Of a stretch of DNA of 64,000 bases, positions 6,632 through 18,428 are shown piece after piece (the first letter of the stretch is position 1; each line of letters starts with the position of its first letter). Where the stretch lies: contig CAVYXS010000258.1 of NCBI GenBank assembly GCA_963772205.1, positions 16,325 through 80,324 on the forward strand. The letters run 5' to 3'. The position numbers and the translations under genes were made by a program. This DNA is from an uncultured cyanobacterium (lineage in GTDB: Bacteria; Cyanobacteriota; Cyanobacteriia; Cyanobacteriales; Nostocaceae). Below the pieces are notes generated by a model. That model was not told the origin of the DNA and ran no database searches. It saw only the letters and a list, made by a program, of their open reading frames with translations.

Positions 6632-7525
6632 TTAATACTTGTCATAATTGGTTGAATTATCTACATCGTCATCTGGCTTGGCGATCGGTTTGTATTCTAC
6701 ATAATCAGTGGGGATCGCGTCATCATCATCGCGTTCTCTGCGAGGAGTTGAGTCACTAGGGGGACGACGCCTCCTGGGTTTGGGGGTAACATCTTCCTCA
6801 CGACTTTCTGGACGCTGAGGGCTGTTGTTACCACGACGGGGAGGTTTTCTGACTTCTCCTGCAGAACTGTCCCAATCATCAACTTCCCTAGGGGCTGAAC
6901 CCCAATCATCTTCTTGTGTTTCGGGACGACTTGCTGGACGCCCTGAACTCCGCCGGCGCGTTTTATCAGTAGATTCCGGCTTTTCTGTGCTGTTGCGCCG
7001 TTCAGAACGACGGGGTGGTTGATCTTCATAGTAGTCATCGCGAGGCGATCGCTCATCCCTGCTACCTCGAATTCGCGCACGCGGGGGGCGTTCCTCGTCT
7101 TCATAAGGTAATGGTTCTAATTCTGCGTCTACCTCGGCTTTATACCTCCGCTCATAGGAATATTTATTACTTACTGGTCGGTCTTCGTCTACAATCGGCG
7201 TATTGCGCTTGGCTTGCTGGGTGGCTATACTTCGCAGTCGAATACTTTCAACTGCAAAGAATACGGTTGTGCCGACTAAAAGCAGCTGACCAAATTGTAA
7301 AATTGGGTCTAGTCGCCAACCTTGGAAGATCAGAATAAAACCACAAAGTAAGCCTACCGCCGCAAAAAATATATCTTGATCTCGTGACAGTTCGGGACGC
7401 ACAGTCCTCAGAAAATACAGTGCTGCTCCAGACACAGCTAGGAAAATTCCTAGAATACTGGCTGAGTTCGCCCCAAAATTTACCTGAGCCAGAATACTGG
7501 CTGAATTCAGCCAAAAATTTATCAT
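6632..7525 (-). CDS. ycf66: Ycf66 family membrane protein with long charged (R/D/E/P-rich) C-terminal tail
   Basis: N-terminus NSASILGIFLAVSGAALYFLRTVRPELSRDQDIFFAAVGLLCGFILIFQGW matches the Ycf66_N domain. The remaining ~200 aa are low-complexity RRxE/D. Confidence 0.75.
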   Translation of the reverse strand: MINFWLNSASILAQVNFGANSASILGIFLAVSGAALYFLRTVRPELSRDQDIFFAAVGLLCGFILIFQGWRLDPILQFGQLLLVGTTVFFAVESIRLRSIATQQAKRNTPIVDEDRPVSNKYSYERRYKAEVDAELEPLPYEDEERPPRARIRGSRDERSPRDDYYEDQPPRRSERRNSTEKPESTDKTRRRSSGRPASRPETQEDDWGSAPREVDDWDSSAGEVRKPPRRGNNSPQRPESREEDVTPKPRRRRPPSDSTPRRERDDDDAIPTDYVEYKPIAKPDDDVDNSTNYDKY

Positions 7526-12160: not shown

Positions 12161-14308
12161 TTATGGAGTTACAAAATCTAAATGATCGCCGGGGAAAGAA
12201 CGTAAATCCTGTACCGTACCTTCCATTTTCAATTTTCCTTTTTCCAAGAAAATAATCCAGTCTGCACGCTCAATTACCCTCGGACGGTGGCTAATTATAA
12301 TTGTAGTTTTGCCTTGTCTAGAAAATAACAGTTTATCTAAAACTTCTGATTCACTGCTGGGGTCAAGTCCGGCTGTGGATTCATCTAAAATTAGTACAGG
12401 TGGATTATGCACAATGGCGCGTGCTAACGCTAGTCTTTGTCTTTGTCCGCCAGAAAGATTAGCGCCAAATTCTCCTAAAACTGTTTGATATGTGTCTGGT
12501 AATTTACTAATAAATTCGTCAGCCAGGGTAATTTGACAAGCGGTAACAATTTCTTCAAAACTGACATCTGGATAACCTAAGCGGAAGTTCTCAATAATTG
12601 AGCGACTCCAAAAATGAGCATCTTGTGGGACTAAAACTACTTGTTTTCGTAAAGATTCTAAAGATAAATCTTGCAGGTTATACATACCATAGCGGATATT
12701 CCCAGATTGAACTGTATGTAACCCGGCAATTAATTTGGCTAAGGTACTTTTACCACAACCAGATTTTCCAATTAAAGCAACAACTTTACCACCGGGAATT
12801 GTGACTGAAAAATCTTCTAATAAGTCTATCCTACCAGCATAATAAAAATTTAACTTACTACAGCATATATCTGTATAACCAGGAATATTTGCTCCAGGTT
12901 TTTGTATATCTGGAGAAGATTCAGGCGTACTGTTGATAACTTCTTGAATACGGGTATTAGCAGTTTGTACATGGGCAAAATCATCTACAATACCGATAAT
13001 AAAGCTAAATAAGCCAGTGACATTACCAGTCAGGCTCGAAAATGCTATTAATTGGCCTATACTTAATTCTTTACTAATAACAAGTTGACTGCCAAATAAT
13101 AATAAACCTGTACCACCAATATTAGCAACTAGTCCAGAAAACTTTTGGTTGATAATTTGAATTTGGATGGTTGTTAAAGATAACTTAGTTAAGCGGGTAA
13201 ATCGGCTTTGTAATTCTTCCCAAAATTGTGCTGCAGCCGTAGTAGTTTTTAGGGTTAATGCACCTTTAAAAATTTCTACTAACACCCCTTGATTTTCTGC
13301 ATCCAACACCATATATTTACGGACTTTTTGCCGCACAATAGGGAGAAAGGCTATTGTAGTGATGTTCATTAAAGCCGAAATCAATAGCGCAAATAATGAT
13401 AATTTCCAGCTATAATAAAACATCAAACATAAGCAAACCACTGCCATAAAAAATCTGGTAGGGAAACCAATTACTCCTTGAGCAATAAAACTATTGATTT
13501 TCTCAATATCTCTCAATCTGCTGGCAATTTCTCCACTCCGACGAGATTCATAATATTTTAAAGGTAAAGATAATAGTTTTTGTCCAAATTCTAACATCAA
13601 CTTTAACTCGAAGCGTCGGGCAAAATTAGCAATTAGCATATTTTGCACCAATTCTAAGCTGGTGTTGATAATGTGCATGACAATTACTGCTAATACTAAA
13701 GAGAGCAGTAAATCGGTATCACCTCGCACTAAAACATCATCAGTGAGAATCTGTATCAAAAAAGGAGAAGCTAAAGACAATAAGCCAATTAATTGGGAAA
13801 TTACCAAGGCTTCTAAAATTAGACCTCGGTATGGTAAAATTCCCTGGATAACCTTTTCAAAAGTGTTAAGTTTGTCATCAGGTTCAGCAAAAAAACGATT
13901 TGCATCTGGTTGGAGTAACAACACTACGCCATTTTGCCAACCCTCAAGTAGTTCTTCTTGAGAAAGATAACGAATACCTATTGCTGGATCGCCAATAATA
14001 TATTTTTTACCACGCTGACCATACAAAACTACCCAATGATATCCTTTCCAATGGATAATTGCTGGTAGTGGCATTTTTGACAGTTTTGCCAGAAAATCAC
14101 CTGATGCTTTACCAGTTCGAGTATAAAGACCTAGGGCTTCTGTACCACGTCTTAAACCTAACAACGTAGTTCCCAATTGACCGCTACCAATGGAATCACG
14201 GATACGGTTAAGTGTTAAATTACGTCCATAGAATTTGAGAATAGAAGCAACACAAGCGGCGCCACAGTCTTCTTCACTGTACTGAATTACAACTGGGTAT
14301 TTTTTCAT
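12161..14308 (-). CDS. peptidase C39 domain-containing ABC transporter (double-glycine leader peptide processing/export, SunT/LagD-like)
   Basis: N-terminal C39 papain-like domain with catalytic Cys (EEDCGAACVASILKFYG) and His (HWVVLYG), six-TM ABC exporter domain, C-terminal ATPase (GKSGCGKST Walker A, LSGGQRQRLALARA signature, ILDEST Walker B). Confidence 0.9.
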   Translation of the reverse strand: MKKYPVVIQYSEEDCGAACVASILKFYGRNLTLNRIRDSIGSGQLGTTLLGLRRGTEALGLYTRTGKASGDFLAKLSKMPLPAIIHWKGYHWVVLYGQRGKKYIIGDPAIGIRYLSQEELLEGWQNGVVLLLQPDANRFFAEPDDKLNTFEKVIQGILPYRGLILEALVISQLIGLLSLASPFLIQILTDDVLVRGDTDLLLSLVLAVIVMHIINTSLELVQNMLIANFARRFELKLMLEFGQKLLSLPLKYYESRRSGEIASRLRDIEKINSFIAQGVIGFPTRFFMAVVCLCLMFYYSWKLSLFALLISALMNITTIAFLPIVRQKVRKYMVLDAENQGVLVEIFKGALTLKTTTAAAQFWEELQSRFTRLTKLSLTTIQIQIINQKFSGLVANIGGTGLLLFGSQLVISKELSIGQLIAFSSLTGNVTGLFSFIIGIVDDFAHVQTANTRIQEVINSTPESSPDIQKPGANIPGYTDICCSKLNFYYAGRIDLLEDFSVTIPGGKVVALIGKSGCGKSTLAKLIAGLHTVQSGNIRYGMYNLQDLSLESLRKQVVLVPQDAHFWSRSIIENFRLGYPDVSFEEIVTACQITLADEFISKLPDTYQTVLGEFGANLSGGQRQRLALARAIVHNPPVLILDESTAGLDPSSESEVLDKLLFSRQGKTTIIISHRPRVIERADWIIFLEKGKLKMEGTVQDLRSFPGDHLDFVTP

Positions 14309-14342: not shown

Positions 14343-14395
14343 AGAACCCCACCCCCAACCCCCTCCCCGCAAGCGAGGAGGGGGCTATTATATAC
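14343..14395. repeat. GC-rich hairpin repeat (CCCCACCCCCAACCCCCTCCCCGCAAGCGAGGAGGGGGCT family)
   Basis: Near-identical copies at 18463-18515 and 32941-32992. Longer related versions at 23329-23412, 29996-30075, 37031-37133, 44648-44740 and 26633-26685. Confidence 0.75.
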
Positions 14396-14928
14396 CTCAC
14401 TAGATCGGGAAACGCTATTTATAGATATATTGCTATGAGAATGATACATAATGTGTAAAAATTCGCTCTGTCCAGATCCCCGACTTCTTAAAGGAAGTGG
14501 GGTGTCTGATTTGTCAGGAATAATTTAAAACTGTGATGGCAATATAATTTAGCAGTAAAATTCCATAAAAATTGAAAAAGTCGGCTTTTAAATTGTGGTT
14601 AATGAATTTTTATTCTTAGCTTGCAAGCATCCGAAATATCCGTTGATCAATGCATTAGGAAAGCAACAGGCGAATGGTACGAAAACATCGCCAATCAATA
14701 ATGACATGCGGTAGTATCATGTTGATACTTATAACTTAAACAATATTACTCTTAATAAGCTGGTTGCAAAGACTATATACAAGATATAGCTTTTACAACC
14801 AGCTAATGCTATGGTAGGCATAAGCCATCAAAACCCTAAGGCTAACAGAGTGCGGCTATCCCTATTAGCCGCAACTCTACCTAATTTTTGATAAATTTAA
14901 AGCTTATACGAACAGTTAGCATTTAGGA

Positions 14929-15261
14929 CTAGGATGGGCAGCCGTTATAACCGCCGCCACCATAACCGCCGCCACCATGACCGCCGCCACCATAGCTGCT
15001 GCTACCACTGCTGCTGCTGCTGCTGCTGCTGTTGCCATTATTGTTGGTATTACAAATAGTGGTATTCACAGTAATAGTGGTACTCACAGAATAAGACGGG
15101 CTAGGAGAAGATGTCGGCGCAGATCCACCGCAAAGATCGCTTAAAAACGAACCTAAATCTAAGAAACAACCACCGGAAATTGTGGATTCATTGTTTTCAG
15201 ACAAATCAGACAGGTAGGTTTCGTCAATAGAAAGTAGTTGGTTTTCAGATGCGATGATCAT
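14929..15261 (-). CDS. double-glycine leader bacteriocin-like precursor peptide 1 (Gly/Ser/Asn-rich, 4-Cys core)
   Basis: Leader MIIASENQLLSIDETYLSDLSENNESTISGG ends in the GG cleavage motif (LSxxELxxIxGG type). The core starts CFLDLGSFLSDLCGG… and carries GGGGHGGGGYGGGGYNGC tracts. Confidence 0.75.
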   Translation of the reverse strand: MIIASENQLLSIDETYLSDLSENNESTISGGCFLDLGSFLSDLCGGSAPTSSPSPSYSVSTTITVNTTICNTNNNGNSSSSSSSSGSSSYGGGGHGGGGYGGGGYNGCPS

Positions 15262-15362
15262 GAATAATTCAGTCCTTTTTGAAGTTTTGACTTGTATTTA
15301 TGAACTTTTGAAGATACTTCACAGTACAAGCTGCTAATGGATGCAGTGTACAGAAAATATCA

Positions 15363-15656
15363 TTAGTGTCCGCCGGAGCTGCTGCCGGAGCTGCTACCGC
15401 TGGTGGCATTGTTGCCGTTGGTGTTGGTATTGGTTATATAGTTATTGACTATAACCGTAGTCCCAGGGCTCTGACTAGGAGCAGGCTGTCCATAACCGCC
15501 GCCGCTGCCGCCACCGAATAAACAGCCTAAAAGACCAAAAAGCCCACCGAATAAAGAAAAACAACCACCAGAAATTGTGGATTCATTTTCTTCAGACAAA
15601 TCAGATAGGCAGCTTTCGTCAATGGAAAGTAGCTGGTTTTCGGATGCAATCATCAT
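15363..15656 (-). CDS. double-glycine leader bacteriocin-like precursor peptide 2 (paralog)
   Basis: Leader MMIASENQLLSIDESCLSDLSEENESTISGG is ~85% identical to peptide 1. Core CFSLFGGLFGLLGCLFGGGSGGGYGQ… The ~100 nt upstream is also duplicated. Confidence 0.75.
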   Translation of the reverse strand: MMIASENQLLSIDESCLSDLSEENESTISGGCFSLFGGLFGLLGCLFGGGSGGGYGQPAPSQSPGTTVIVNNYITNTNTNGNNATSGSSSGSSSGGH

Positions 15657-16451
15657 GATAAGTTTCGTCCTTTTTGAAGTTTTTACGTTTGTTTATGAAC
15701 TTTTAAAGATACTTGACAGTGCTAACTAACAATATATGCACTGTGCAGAAAGTATCAATTTTTTAATAACAGTAACTCCAGAAGATAAAAGAAAATTGTG
15801 GCTTCATTTATCTGGAATTACTGTTATTTAACTAGTTCATGTATCTAAACCTACAGTATCTACGAAAAAAAGTATAGTCTTTTTTGATTTTTTTTCGATA
15901 AAGCAAAAAATGTATCTGTAGCTATTAAGTATTTATACGCATAAATTAATTGTAAACCTTCATACTATTCTCTAACATCAGAGATTTCACATTTTCAAGA
16001 CTTATCTTTTGCGTAAAATACGATAAAAATTGAGAACTAAGTTGATACGTATTACTGGCTGTATAATATCAAGCTACAGCAGAAATAATGTAAATTTCTC
16101 ATAAAAAAAGAAAATATCGGTAAAATATGATATCTTCTGAAATAAGTGAAAATAACACATTTTAGAATCCAAAAAGTATAAAAAAACATTAAATATTCAT
16201 TTAACTATATTGAAAATACGTCCATATTGAAAAATGTAGTTTTTGTAATTTTAATAGTACTGGCGTAAAGTAAATGTAACCGAAAAAACAATATTTTGAG
16301 ATTGCTACGTCATTCCTCTAGCCTAACGGAAGCAAGTTACGCAATAACATAAATGAAAACTCACGCTTTCAAAATGGATGAGGTGTATGTGTATGGCAGA
16401 AAATAACTACTGTTTATTTAGCGTAAATTTTGGCATTTTTTGAGAAAAACT

Positions 16452-18428
16452 ATGATTAAAGTTTTGGTGGTAGATGACCAAAAAACTATTAGAGAGTACT
16501 TAAAATCTTTGATTCAAAAAGAAACAGATTTAGAAGTAGTTGGGGTTGCAGATAATGGCAAAACTGCTATTCTTGAAGTTGCTAAATTACATCCAGATGT
16601 CGTGCTAATCGATATGGAAATGCCGGAGATGGACGGTATTCATGCGACAAGGATTATTAGTGAAAGATTTCCGAAAACGAAAGTTTTGGTGTTGAGTGGT
16701 TACGACAATTATCAATATATTCAGGATTCGATAAATGCTGGAGCAATTGGTTATTTACTAAAAGATGCTTCTCCAGAAGAACTTAGAGACTCAATTCGCT
16801 TAATTGACAAAGGCTATAGTCAATTAGCGCCTGGATTAATTAGTAAAATTATTACCCAACAGACAACATCCAATTCAGAAATAGTCAAAGTTGCCAATAA
16901 TTTTGATTCTCAGGTTTCAGGAATAGTTGTTAAGGAAAATCCGCCTACTTTTTTGAATGTAATTCATCCAGACGAACTATTACCCAATACGACTCGTTGG
17001 GCAGAAGTAGGAGGGGTATTTTTAATTGGAACTGTGATTACAGGCATAATTTTGTCTGCTGTTATTGAATACAAGGTAGTTGTAAAAGCACCTGCAAATG
17101 TGCGTCCGGCTGGAGAAGTACGCTTAGTACAAGCAACACTAGAAGGAACAGTTAAAAGCATTCTTGTTAAAGAGAATCAGATGGTGAAAACACAAGATAT
17201 TATTGCCACCATCGATGATAGTCAACTACAAATAAAAAAAAGTCAACTTCTAGACAATATCCAGCAGAACCAAATGCAACTGATGCAAATGGATGCTCAA
17301 ATTAGTGGTATTAATAGACAAATAGACGCAGAAACAGACCGTAATCAGACAGCGATCGCATCGGCGACAGCAGACTTACAACGCACGCGAAGAGAATATC
17401 AGCAAAACAAATTTGCTGTTAAAGGTCAATTACAAGAAGTCCAGGCTAATATTAAAATTGCCCAAAATGAATTACAAAAAGCCGAATTTGACTTGCAATC
17501 AATGCAAGCGAATCTGAAAGTGACAGAAGCAGCATTAAAAGTTGCTAAACTCAAGAGCGATCGCTATCAAAGTATTGCTACATCCGGCTCCATTTCTCAA
17601 AATCAATTGGAAGAAGTTCAATTAGGGGTACAACAGCAACAACAATCTCTGATTTCACAAAAAGCGAGTTTAGAAGCTCAAAAGCAAGTTGTCGAAAGAC
17701 AAAGACAAGCGATAGCAGTAGCAATGACCAAATATAAACCAGCAGCAGCAGCCATCAACCCTACTAATGCTGTTTTATCAGTGGTAGAAGGAAAAATTGC
17801 CCAAGAACGGGCTGCAGGTGAAGGAAGTTTAGCACGATTGAAGCAAGAAGAAAATAGTTTAATTCAGCGGAAAATCGAAATTCAAAATATAATTAACAGC
17901 GCCAAAAAAGACTTAGGACAAATAGAAAAACAACTGCAAGCAACTGTGATTCGTTCTCCCGACAAAGGGACAATTTTGAAATTAGAACTGCGAAATCCGC
18001 AGCAGTTAGTTCATGCGGGAGAAGCGATTGCTCAAATAGCCCCTTCTGAGGCACCTTTAGTAGTCAAAGCCAATGTCAGCGCTGAGGATATTAGCAAAGT
18101 AAAAGTCTGTAAATCTCCAAAAGTTGCACTCTGCGAACAAGGTAAAGTGCAAATGCGAATTTCCGCGTATCCTTACCCAGATTATGGCATTTTGCAGGGC
18201 GCTGTCAGAAGTATTAGTGCTGATGTGATTACACCCGCAAGTAATCCCATTGTGCCAACTGCACCTTACTATGAAGTGACTATCGAACCAGAGAAACTTA
18301 ATTTAAAAAAAGGTAATAAATTGTATCCAATCCAAGCAGGAATGGAAGTAAACGCCGAAATTATTTCCCAAAAAGAGACTTTTTTAACCTTGATTCTGAG
18401 AAAAGCACGGCTTATGACTAATTTATAG
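16452..18428 (+). CDS. response-regulator receiver domain fused to HlyD-family membrane fusion (secretion adaptor) protein
   Basis: N-terminal CheY-like REC (VLVVDDQ…, phospho-acceptor Asp in VVLIDMEMPEMDG, LVLSGY, YLLKD). Then a TM helix (VGGVFLIGTVITGIILSAVI), long coiled-coil and HlyD C-terminal beta-barrel (ATVIRSPDKGTILKLEL). Start taken at ATG 16452 (ORF opens with TTG at 16440). Confidence 0.85.
   Translation: MIKVLVVDDQKTIREYLKSLIQKETDLEVVGVADNGKTAILEVAKLHPDVVLIDMEMPEMDGIHATRIISERFPKTKVLVLSGYDNYQYIQDSINAGAIGYLLKDASPEELRDSIRLIDKGYSQLAPGLISKIITQQTTSNSEIVKVANNFDSQVSGIVVKENPPTFLNVIHPDELLPNTTRWAEVGGVFLIGTVITGIILSAVIEYKVVVKAPANVRPAGEVRLVQATLEGTVKSILVKENQMVKTQDIIATIDDSQLQIKKSQLLDNIQQNQMQLMQMDAQISGINRQIDAETDRNQTAIASATADLQRTRREYQQNKFAVKGQLQEVQANIKIAQNELQKAEFDLQSMQANLKVTEAALKVAKLKSDRYQSIATSGSISQNQLEEVQLGVQQQQQSLISQKASLEAQKQVVERQRQAIAVAMTKYKPAAAAINPTNAVLSVVEGKIAQERAAGEGSLARLKQEENSLIQRKIEIQNIINSAKKDLGQIEKQLQATVIRSPDKGTILKLELRNPQQLVHAGEAIAQIAPSEAPLVVKANVSAEDISKVKVCKSPKVALCEQGKVQMRISAYPYPDYGILQGAVRSISADVITPASNPIVPTAPYYEVTIEPEKLNLKKGNKLYPIQAGMEVNAEIISQKETFLTLILRKARLMTNL

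Follow-up and report, generated by a model that had tools for sequence, protein, structure and literature searches.

Class II microcins of enterobacteria, colicin V and MccE492 among them, are gene-encoded, Gly/Ser-rich peptides of 60-100 aa that carry a double-glycine (GG) leader and are exported by a peptidase-containing ATP-binding cassette (ABC) transporter (PCAT) together with an HlyD-family adaptor (CvaAB-type export); those of class IIb also have a Ser-rich C-terminal tail. Among the double-glycine 'bacteriocin' clusters of cyanobacteria, group III combines HlyD and a short C39-ABC transporter with several precursor genes (Wang et al., 2011; PMC3140520). That such peptides of cyanobacteria are not necessarily antibiotics is shown by EbfG1-4 of Synechococcus elongatus PCC 7942, whose tandem GG-motif genes are carried on one polycistronic transcript and whose secretion is aided by the C39-peptidase transporter PteB (PMC4997328). 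Bacterial mRNAs, in turn, can be stabilised by 5' hairpins, and stem-loops at the 5' end or between cistrons can stabilise or shape those that are polycistronic, as in the ompA, papA and aprE leaders (reviewed in PMC3997798). Here we describe two tandem GG-leader peptide genes, pep2 and pep1, in a 64,000-nt stretch of DNA (hereafter, the window) from an uncultured cyanobacterium of the Nostocaceae (assembly GCA_963772205.1, contig CAVYXS010000258.1, positions 16,325 to 80,324), each of which is preceded by a similar block of ~100 nt. We favor, at a probability of roughly 60%, the reading that an old tandem duplication within a conserved chromosomal export locus copied a cassette in which the 3' portion of an mRNA leader precedes a double-glycine peptide gene, and that the block would act as the 5' untranslated region (UTR) and the intercistronic RNA element of a single operon transcript.

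In its gene content the locus is a group III cluster, with HlyD, a short-type C39-ABC transporter, several precursors and no peptidase-less second ABC transporter, and it likewise has short GG-leader precursors in which the leader is conserved and the cores vary. It differs from group III in that its leader matches no named precursor family, its HlyD is fused to a receiver domain, its peptide family is tiny and the locus is syntenic, chromosomal and found in a narrow Stigonema/Calothrix clade. The tandem small GG-motif genes and the C39-peptidase transporter are comparable to EbfG1-4 and PteB in architecture only, and a structured leader and 3' element have not been described for ebfG. Class II microcins share the gene-encoded Gly/Ser-rich GG-leader peptides and the pairing of PCAT with HlyD, and the Ser-rich tail resembles that of class IIb; the leader in the window is, however, about twice as long, and no immunity or siderophore-attachment genes were found nearby. 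The locus is thus of an ordinary kind among cyanobacterial double-glycine peptide arrays, the flanking RNA structures being its most novel part, and the current understanding of double-glycine peptide systems is not overturned by it.

Both genes are open reading frames (ORFs) on the minus strand. The upstream member of the pair, pep2 (A-type; 15363-15656), encodes a 97-aa precursor whose double-glycine leader takes up 31 aa and whose core of 66 aa opens with a stretch rich in Gly, Leu and Phe and continues with abundant Asn, Thr and Ser, and the downstream member, pep1 (B-type; 14929-15261), encodes a 110-aa precursor with a leader of the same family and a core containing a Ser run and GGGGH/Y repeats. 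The leaders (MMIASENQLLSIDESCLSDLSEENESTISGG in pep2 and MIIASENQLLSIDETYLSDLSENNESTISGG in pep1) end in CLSDLSEENESTISGG directly before a Cys and show the spaced hydrophobic residues of a double-glycine leader (I at -4, L at -12 and L at -15), and G30 and G31 are invariant across nine aligned family members. As originally predicted, the leaders are nearly identical while the cores have diverged: 27 of 31 leader residues are shared and four differ, and the first 96 nt of coding sequence agree at 85 positions (88%), with six synonymous and four non-synonymous codon differences, compared with an identity of ~48-49% between the core DNAs. No Pfam family matched the peptides at E <= 0.01 when named precursor families (Bacteriocin_IIc, NHLP and Nif11-type, along with their NCBIfam equivalents) were considered; the sole NCBIfam hit, to TafF with E = 0.09, was dismissed as chance, and PADLOC returned no match for the peptides. 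An AlphaFold2 model of pep2 built from nine sequences had a mean predicted local distance difference test score of 52 and a predicted template modeling score of 0.16, with one helix only (residues 34-47), and was too poor for a fold search. The mature peptides may be bacteriocins or EbfG-like matrix components.

The similarity between the two units is not limited to the coding leader, which would have refuted the original observation, but reaches well past it. When the block upstream of pep2 (copy A, 15657-15760, minus strand) was aligned with that upstream of pep1 (copy B, 15262-15362, minus strand), 79 of 104 positions were identical in a global alignment and 80 of 103 in another (76-78%), which bears out the expectation that the ~100 nt ahead of both start codons would be alike. 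Because the similarity begins directly past the pep2 stop codon (TAA, 15363-15365), block B corresponds to the whole 101-nt spacer between the genes. A repeat finder reported a single 220-nt direct repeat (15143-15362 and 15538-15757) with 80% identity and a spacing of 395 nt, and the 23-nt block motif AAGTATCTTYAAAAGTTCATAAA occurs twice in the 64 kb, compared with 0.00 occurrences expected from shuffles. Copy A contains an imperfect hairpin (H2-A, 15708-15756), the short motif AAGTTCAT (15695-15702), an A-rich linker and an AAGGA ribosome-binding site (15668-15672), and copy B has the corresponding hairpin (H2-B, 15313-15361), AAGTTCAT (15300-15307), an A-rich linker and a ribosome-binding site. 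The proposal that an upstream region and gene were duplicated as a cassette, after which the cores diverged, thus stands with respect to the unit of upstream block, leader and core and to the strong divergence of the cores beside a retained leader and block; it does not stand as an account of a recent event with drift of the core, for the duplication is ancient.

The age of the duplication is apparent from related genomes. The peptides belong to a tiny family, with eight matches in a word-indexed search of 5.8 billion proteins and seven members found among 1.84 billion cluster representatives by a full HMMER profile search. Loci with DNA were recovered from a JGI contig of 6.5 Mb (L001), a Stigonema metagenome-assembled genome with two loci (L002 and L008), short contigs (L011 to L015), Stigonema ocellatum SAG 48.90 (L009 and a remnant, L010), Calothrix NIES-2100 (L003) and two Calothrix FACHB strains (L136 and L137). 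Across these genomes the genes are syntenic, comprising DUF3352, a receiver (REC)-HlyD fusion, the peptide gene or genes, C39-ABC, a chorismate-lyase-like gene and accC. Orthologs of pep2 are present in L002, L008, L009, L012 and L014, and of pep1 in the same loci apart from L009, so that five loci, the window included, have an A-type gene and, after a spacer of 101-102 nt, a B-type gene. Between genomes the cores cluster by type (amino-acid identities of 51-63% for A-A and 46-52% for B-B pairs versus 35-44% across types), as do the blocks (91% between the A copies of the window and L012 and 93% between the B copy of the window and those of L012 and L014, versus 78% between the two copies of the window). 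The duplication therefore predates these species, and the tandem arrangement is old and shared by related Stigonema-like genomes. The protein of the neighboring ABC gene is 87-94% identical across loci while the cores diverge, indicating that the cores evolve much faster than the ABC gene. In the Calothrix loci there is a single gene whose core is rich in Pro and Cys, with a leader and flanks as in the Stigonema-type loci.

A separate duplication, with other boundaries, is found in L001, where a 324-nt spacer also holds a second hairpin, H1, and the first half of a structured element that follows the peptide genes (both described below). There the pattern is opposite to that of the window (L001, 6001-6927): the cores are 94% identical at the DNA level, the upstream blocks 74% and the leaders 87%. 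Searches beyond these loci added none, as a metagenome scan with the leader alignment yielded no confirmed locus and blastn of the cassette against PLSDB plasmids no match. A metagenome scan with the DNA pattern GAAGTATNNNNNAAAGYTCAT returned at least 120 stretches, none of them followed by a leader ORF and all judged to be chance matches. C39-ABC homologs at a greater distance (65-70% identity; L138, L139 and L140) belong to other clusters without the leader RNA described here.

An old duplication could leave similar blocks that have no function of their own, kept alike by gene conversion seeded from the conserved leader. Conversion does appear to act in this family, as block and leader are 97-100% identical between the paralogs of L002 and L008, whose cores are 59-64% identical, a pattern that points to a gene-conversion tract; moreover, the 78% identity of the blocks in the window is about that of neutral four-fold sites between these species (76-79%), and the two blocks of L014 share just 65-67%. 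The window, L012 and L014 nonetheless retain A- and B-specific block variants (91-93% identical within type), which argues that no recent conversion took place in those genomes, and the hairpin potential, an AAAAGYTCAT motif, the A-rich linker and a spacer 101-102 nt long have all been retained despite sequence divergence. We therefore regard a functionless leftover as an improbable explanation of the block.

The features that are retained appear in a fixed order: the imperfect hairpin H2 of ~50 nt, AAAAGYTCAT, the A-rich stretch and the ribosome-binding site. The block was found before all 18 family genes examined, one of which is a pseudogene remnant, and the hairpin potential, AAAAGYTCAT and the A-rich linker persist in blocks of diverged sequence, including those of the single-gene Calothrix loci. 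The outer stem of H2 is GATAYTT/AAGTATC. Standard pairs occupy 81.8% of the cells of the H2 alignment, compared with 35-54% when the partners are slid by one to three columns, seven pairs have changed on both sides, and the covariation score is 0.313 against 0.170 in shuffles (none of 500 reaching the observed value). Of 16 blocks, 13 have an H2 that folds more stably in the sense than in the antisense orientation, and the same holds for H1 in nine of 11, as expected for an RNA and not for a DNA palindrome. These observations make it most likely that the ~100-nt block is a transcribed, structured RNA and not a promoter. As an intrinsic terminator H2 was rejected, as it has no U run, H2-B being followed by CUUCAAAAGUUCAU.

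Ahead of the first gene, the block forms the 3' third of a larger structure. H1 is a long hairpin directly upstream of block A (15762-15831, minus strand), with 21-nt arms that are 90% complementary and a 28-nt loop; it folds at -26 kcal/mol in the sense and -20.5 kcal/mol in the antisense orientation, six of its pairs have changed on both sides, and it lies outside the duplicated unit in this window. Upstream of H1 an ATGARCT motif is complementary to the AAGYTCAT of the block motif, and the two strands, ~140 nt apart, can form a helix, P0, whose 5' strand (ATGAACTA, 15833-15840, minus strand) pairs with its 3' strand, AAGTTCAT at 15695-15702, thereby closing a three-way junction with H1 and H2-A. 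The fold of this P0-H1-H2 junction of ~150 nt is conserved in 11 loci. In an 11-sequence alignment, 81.5% of positions in the full junction are paired, compared with 37-51% when slid, and 15 pairs have changed on both sides (0 of 500 shuffles); at P0 pair 14-156 (alignment A9), five loci have G-C, five have G·U and the window has A-U. As RNAalifold on a MAFFT alignment of H1 gave no pairs, owing to a one-column misregister at an indel, single-sequence folds and a hand-set structure were used instead. The minimum-energy fold of positions -185 to -38 is the three-way junction in all ten A-copy leaders that were folded, and the pairing probability of P0 is 0.5-1.0 when the RNA is set to start at P0. 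The region from -15 to +6 has a mean unpaired probability of 0.37-0.69.

A covariance model of the junction, R1, gives 100-158 bits for the A copies; the B copies score lower, with 79 bits for the longer one of L001 and 44-59 bits for ordinary ones, block B of the window being a partial match at 50.9 bits, in keeping with a pep1 copy that holds only the 3' third of the leader in this lineage. The model matched nothing else in the window and nothing in the more distant C39-ABC clusters. With Rfam 15, nothing between 14300 and 16500 matched at or near the gathering score; a permissive scan of the same region produced microRNA and sRNA model matches only, which were judged to be chance. The leader thus shows what is expected of a conserved, structured cis-acting RNA, namely compensatory changes and a preference for one strand, in a sample of 11 to 18 related sequences from a narrow clade. 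A cassette remnant on a second contig of Stigonema ocellatum (L010, 2814-3063), at an unrelated locus, retains the full leader RNA (146 bits with R1); it keeps only 14 leader codons before a frame break, and the outer stem of its H2 is damaged.

Both inverted repeats lie between divergently transcribed genes and a receiver-domain protein is encoded next door, so that H2 and H1 might be thought DNA-level operators for a dimeric regulator. This we consider highly improbable: the sequences of the arms differ between lineages with compensatory changes, G·U pairs occur on the sense strand only (as they do in the 3' element), P0 joins sites 140 nt apart, and the REC-HlyD protein has no DNA-binding domain in Pfam and NCBIfam domain searches.

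The original prediction had placed in the conserved block a probable promoter common to both copies, and this was not supported. A scan for sigma-70-type sites gave 12 hits in 2.2 kb, compared with 9.0 ± 3.4 in shuffles, and found no promoter-like element at the same place in both blocks. The sole sigma-70-like match in a block, TTGATA-16-TATATT (15731-15758, minus strand), lies within H2-A in the pep2 copy; it occurs only in copy A of the window and of L012, at columns where the A and B blocks differ, and the same scan found no promoter-like site on the minus strand of the pep1 block (15262-15362). The best promoter candidate is instead found once per operon, ~190 nt upstream of pep2, where TG-TAGGTT (15848-15855, minus strand), a -10-like hexamer of the form TAnnTT, stands exactly 7 nt ahead of P0; the spacing of TG-TAnnTT to P0 is exactly 7 nt in all 11 loci. 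In -10 elements, the A at position 2 and the T at position 6 matter most. From this general property and the conserved TAnnTT 7 nt upstream, we infer that transcription would begin on the first base of P0 or on a neighboring one, which would leave the 5' end of the mRNA base-paired. A conserved A6-GACTATAC-T7 palindrome (15865-15885, minus strand) precedes TG-TAnnTT; it contains TATACT and is an alternative candidate for a promoter or a regulator site. The scan matched TCGAAA-16-TATACT at 15898-15871; TATACT was rejected as a conserved -10 element, since it reads TGTACT in Calothrix-type loci. An NtcA-type box, TGTA-N8-TACA, overlaps the -10-like hexamer in Stigonema-type loci (15841-15854, minus strand; a perfect box) and was likewise set aside, its spacing being N6 in L001, L003 and L011; the box may be lineage-specific or coincidental.

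If each block nevertheless carried its own promoter and a shared regulatory site, pep2 and pep1 would be independently transcribed cassettes. Each gene does have its own ribosome-binding site, the match within H2-A agrees with the consensus at 10 of 12 positions and is the best in the 2.2-kb region, and the duplicated unit of L001 is longer, taking in the 3' element and H1, as might be expected of a self-contained cassette. That match is, however, missing from the A copies of L002, L008, L009 and L014 as well as from the pep1 block, promoter-like hits are no commoner than in shuffles, and the TAnnTT/palindrome region is missing even from the longer copy of L001. Furthermore, block B begins at the pep2 stop codon, a scan of the minus strand found no terminator-like site in the interval between pep2 and pep1, and the hairpin arms change in sequence without loss of pairing, G·U pairs appearing in the sense strand, which is unlike the evolution of a promoter or a shared protein-binding site. 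Independent promoters are therefore an unlikely explanation, if a somewhat better one than a functionless leftover.

We thus return to a single operon, for which we propose, with moderate confidence, that one promoter would give a pep2-pep1 transcript with the block as its 5'UTR and intercistronic element. The three-way junction would then begin at or beside the 5' end of the transcript, and each cistron would have its own open translation start. That the base-paired 5' end and the hairpins, including the intercistronic one, might protect or shape the mRNA while the A-rich linker keeps the start sites open is a suggestion in which we have lower confidence. The precursors would be cut after the GG motif (after Gly31) and exported by the PCAT/HlyD pair. 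This reading draws on three precedents: the ebfG1-4 polycistron, the stabilising 5' hairpins and a peptide array in Nostoc commune. In common with mRNA-stabilising stem-loops, the predicted RNA has a helix that would sequester its 5' end, intercistronic hairpins and, downstream of these, ribosome-binding regions that are open; its three-way junction exceeds a simple protective hairpin in size, and the likeness is one of analogy only. In Nostoc commune NIES-4072 (L140, 2115-4778), tandem GG-leader peptide genes (MESTLFTTLTVTEEASLSGG..., with cores of PAPT repeats) are located between HlyD and C39-ABC. Their near-identical spacers of 108 nt each contain a 13-bp hairpin, so that this array resembles the window in its tandem peptide genes by HlyD and C39-ABC and in its hairpin-bearing spacers, and it shows that duplication of a gene together with a hairpin-containing spacer is common in arrays of this type. 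In leader, cores and spacer sequence the Nostoc commune array is unrelated to the window, and R1 does not match it.

Several observations weigh against a single transcript with a structured leader. A good sigma-70-like match does sit in the pep2 block, and both the transcription start and co-transcription are deduced from sequence alone. The inner stem of H2 shifts register between subtypes, so RNAalifold recovers the outer stem only, and blocks folded alone are unremarkable (z = -0.4 to -2.8). Between distant loci the block is 52-63% conserved, compared with 71-76% at four-fold degenerate sites of the ABC gene, and any constraint must therefore be on structure and short motifs only. In L012 and L002, P0 is outcompeted when the transcript starts ~30 nt further upstream, and the pep1 copy has kept AAGTTCAT though its P0 partner was not duplicated, which the P0 model leaves unexplained. 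Finally, the covariation statistics are inflated by relatedness, as the 11 leaders come from a narrow clade and have an effective sequence number of 2.6.

A second structured element follows pep1. The ~180 nt past the gene are 85-95% conserved in every locus, including those of Calothrix, far above the peptide cores, and comprise (14735-14915, minus strand) a rod-like domain with a GCGGCTA/TAGCCGC hairpin (14852-14872) and then a hairpin with 24-nt arms (14755-14807). The minimum free energy of this element is -68.3 kcal/mol (z = -5.07), its consensus fold reaches -49.2 kcal/mol in the sense and -40.8 kcal/mol in the antisense orientation, and 96.9% of its positions are paired, compared with 32-46% when slid. 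L011 shows a compensatory swap from G-C to C-G (GCGGCTA to CCGGCTA). No Rfam family matched the element. Small ORFs in the conserved stretch were rejected as genes, as the orthologs carry stop codons and the frames differ. The 14755-14807 hairpin may be the operon terminator, and the element as a whole might serve as a 3'UTR, terminate or attenuate transcription ahead of the exporter gene, or be a small RNA (sRNA); in the proposed operon, this large structure would end or attenuate the transcript before the exporter gene is reached.

A bolder view, which we offer tentatively and think unlikely, is that the P0-H1-H2 leader of ~150 nt and the 3' element of ~180 nt are two undescribed families of regulatory RNA that sense a protein or ligand, bracket the cassette for a hypervariable secreted peptide and gate its production relative to that of the exporter, with the half-copy at pep1 uncoupling the second paralog. 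Neither of these two candidate structured RNAs is represented in Rfam. The locus offers, in addition, a natural case of conserved flanks around a hypervariable core: Stigonema and Calothrix have the leader, the 5' RNA and the 3' RNA in common, while the cores switch from Gly/Ser/Asn-rich to Pro/Cys-rich between the two. The apparent duplication of a promoter is better explained as that of part of an mRNA leader within one operon, a distinction that would alter how the expression of peptide arrays is predicted and engineered.

The export genes flank the peptide genes, in agreement with the bacteriocin-array-like setting first proposed for this double-glycine peptide cluster. Downstream, on the same strand, is the C39-peptidase ABC exporter (12161-14308, minus strand; 715 aa; Pfam PF03412, PF00664 and PF00005), whose C39 domain was identified with E = 1.1e-32 (PF03412) and whose translation retains the catalytic Cys, His and Asp, in the motifs QYSEEDCGAAC and HWVVL...IGDP. 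Upstream and divergent is the 662-aa fusion of an N-terminal response-regulator receiver domain to an HlyD-family membrane-fusion protein (16440-18428, plus strand; PF13437 and TIGR01843), an arrangement that suggests export controlled by phosphorylation. The receiver is absent from the HlyD proteins of L002 and L008 (536 aa each) and truncated in that of Stigonema ocellatum (L009; 548 aa). Between 12161 and 18428 there is no second ABC gene and there are no modification enzymes, and no conserved ORF that might be a dedicated immunity gene was found on either side of the peptide genes, in the intervals that separate them from HlyD and from the ABC gene.

A G/C-rich inverted repeat (CCCCCTCCCCGC / GCGAGGAGGGGG, 14359-14384) is located ahead of the ABC start codon, in a stretch of the window that aligns only to gaps in related loci. 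Other genes of the window include DUF3352 and Ycf66, which point to a cyanobacterium. The only matches at Rfam gathering scores anywhere in the window are a tRNA and a full-length HEARO RNA (RF02033; 7724-7951, minus strand; 129 bits), located elsewhere than the peptide region; the HEARO RNA has no IscB-like or HNH ORF beside it, and the next ORF on the minus strand is that of Ycf66 (6632-7525).

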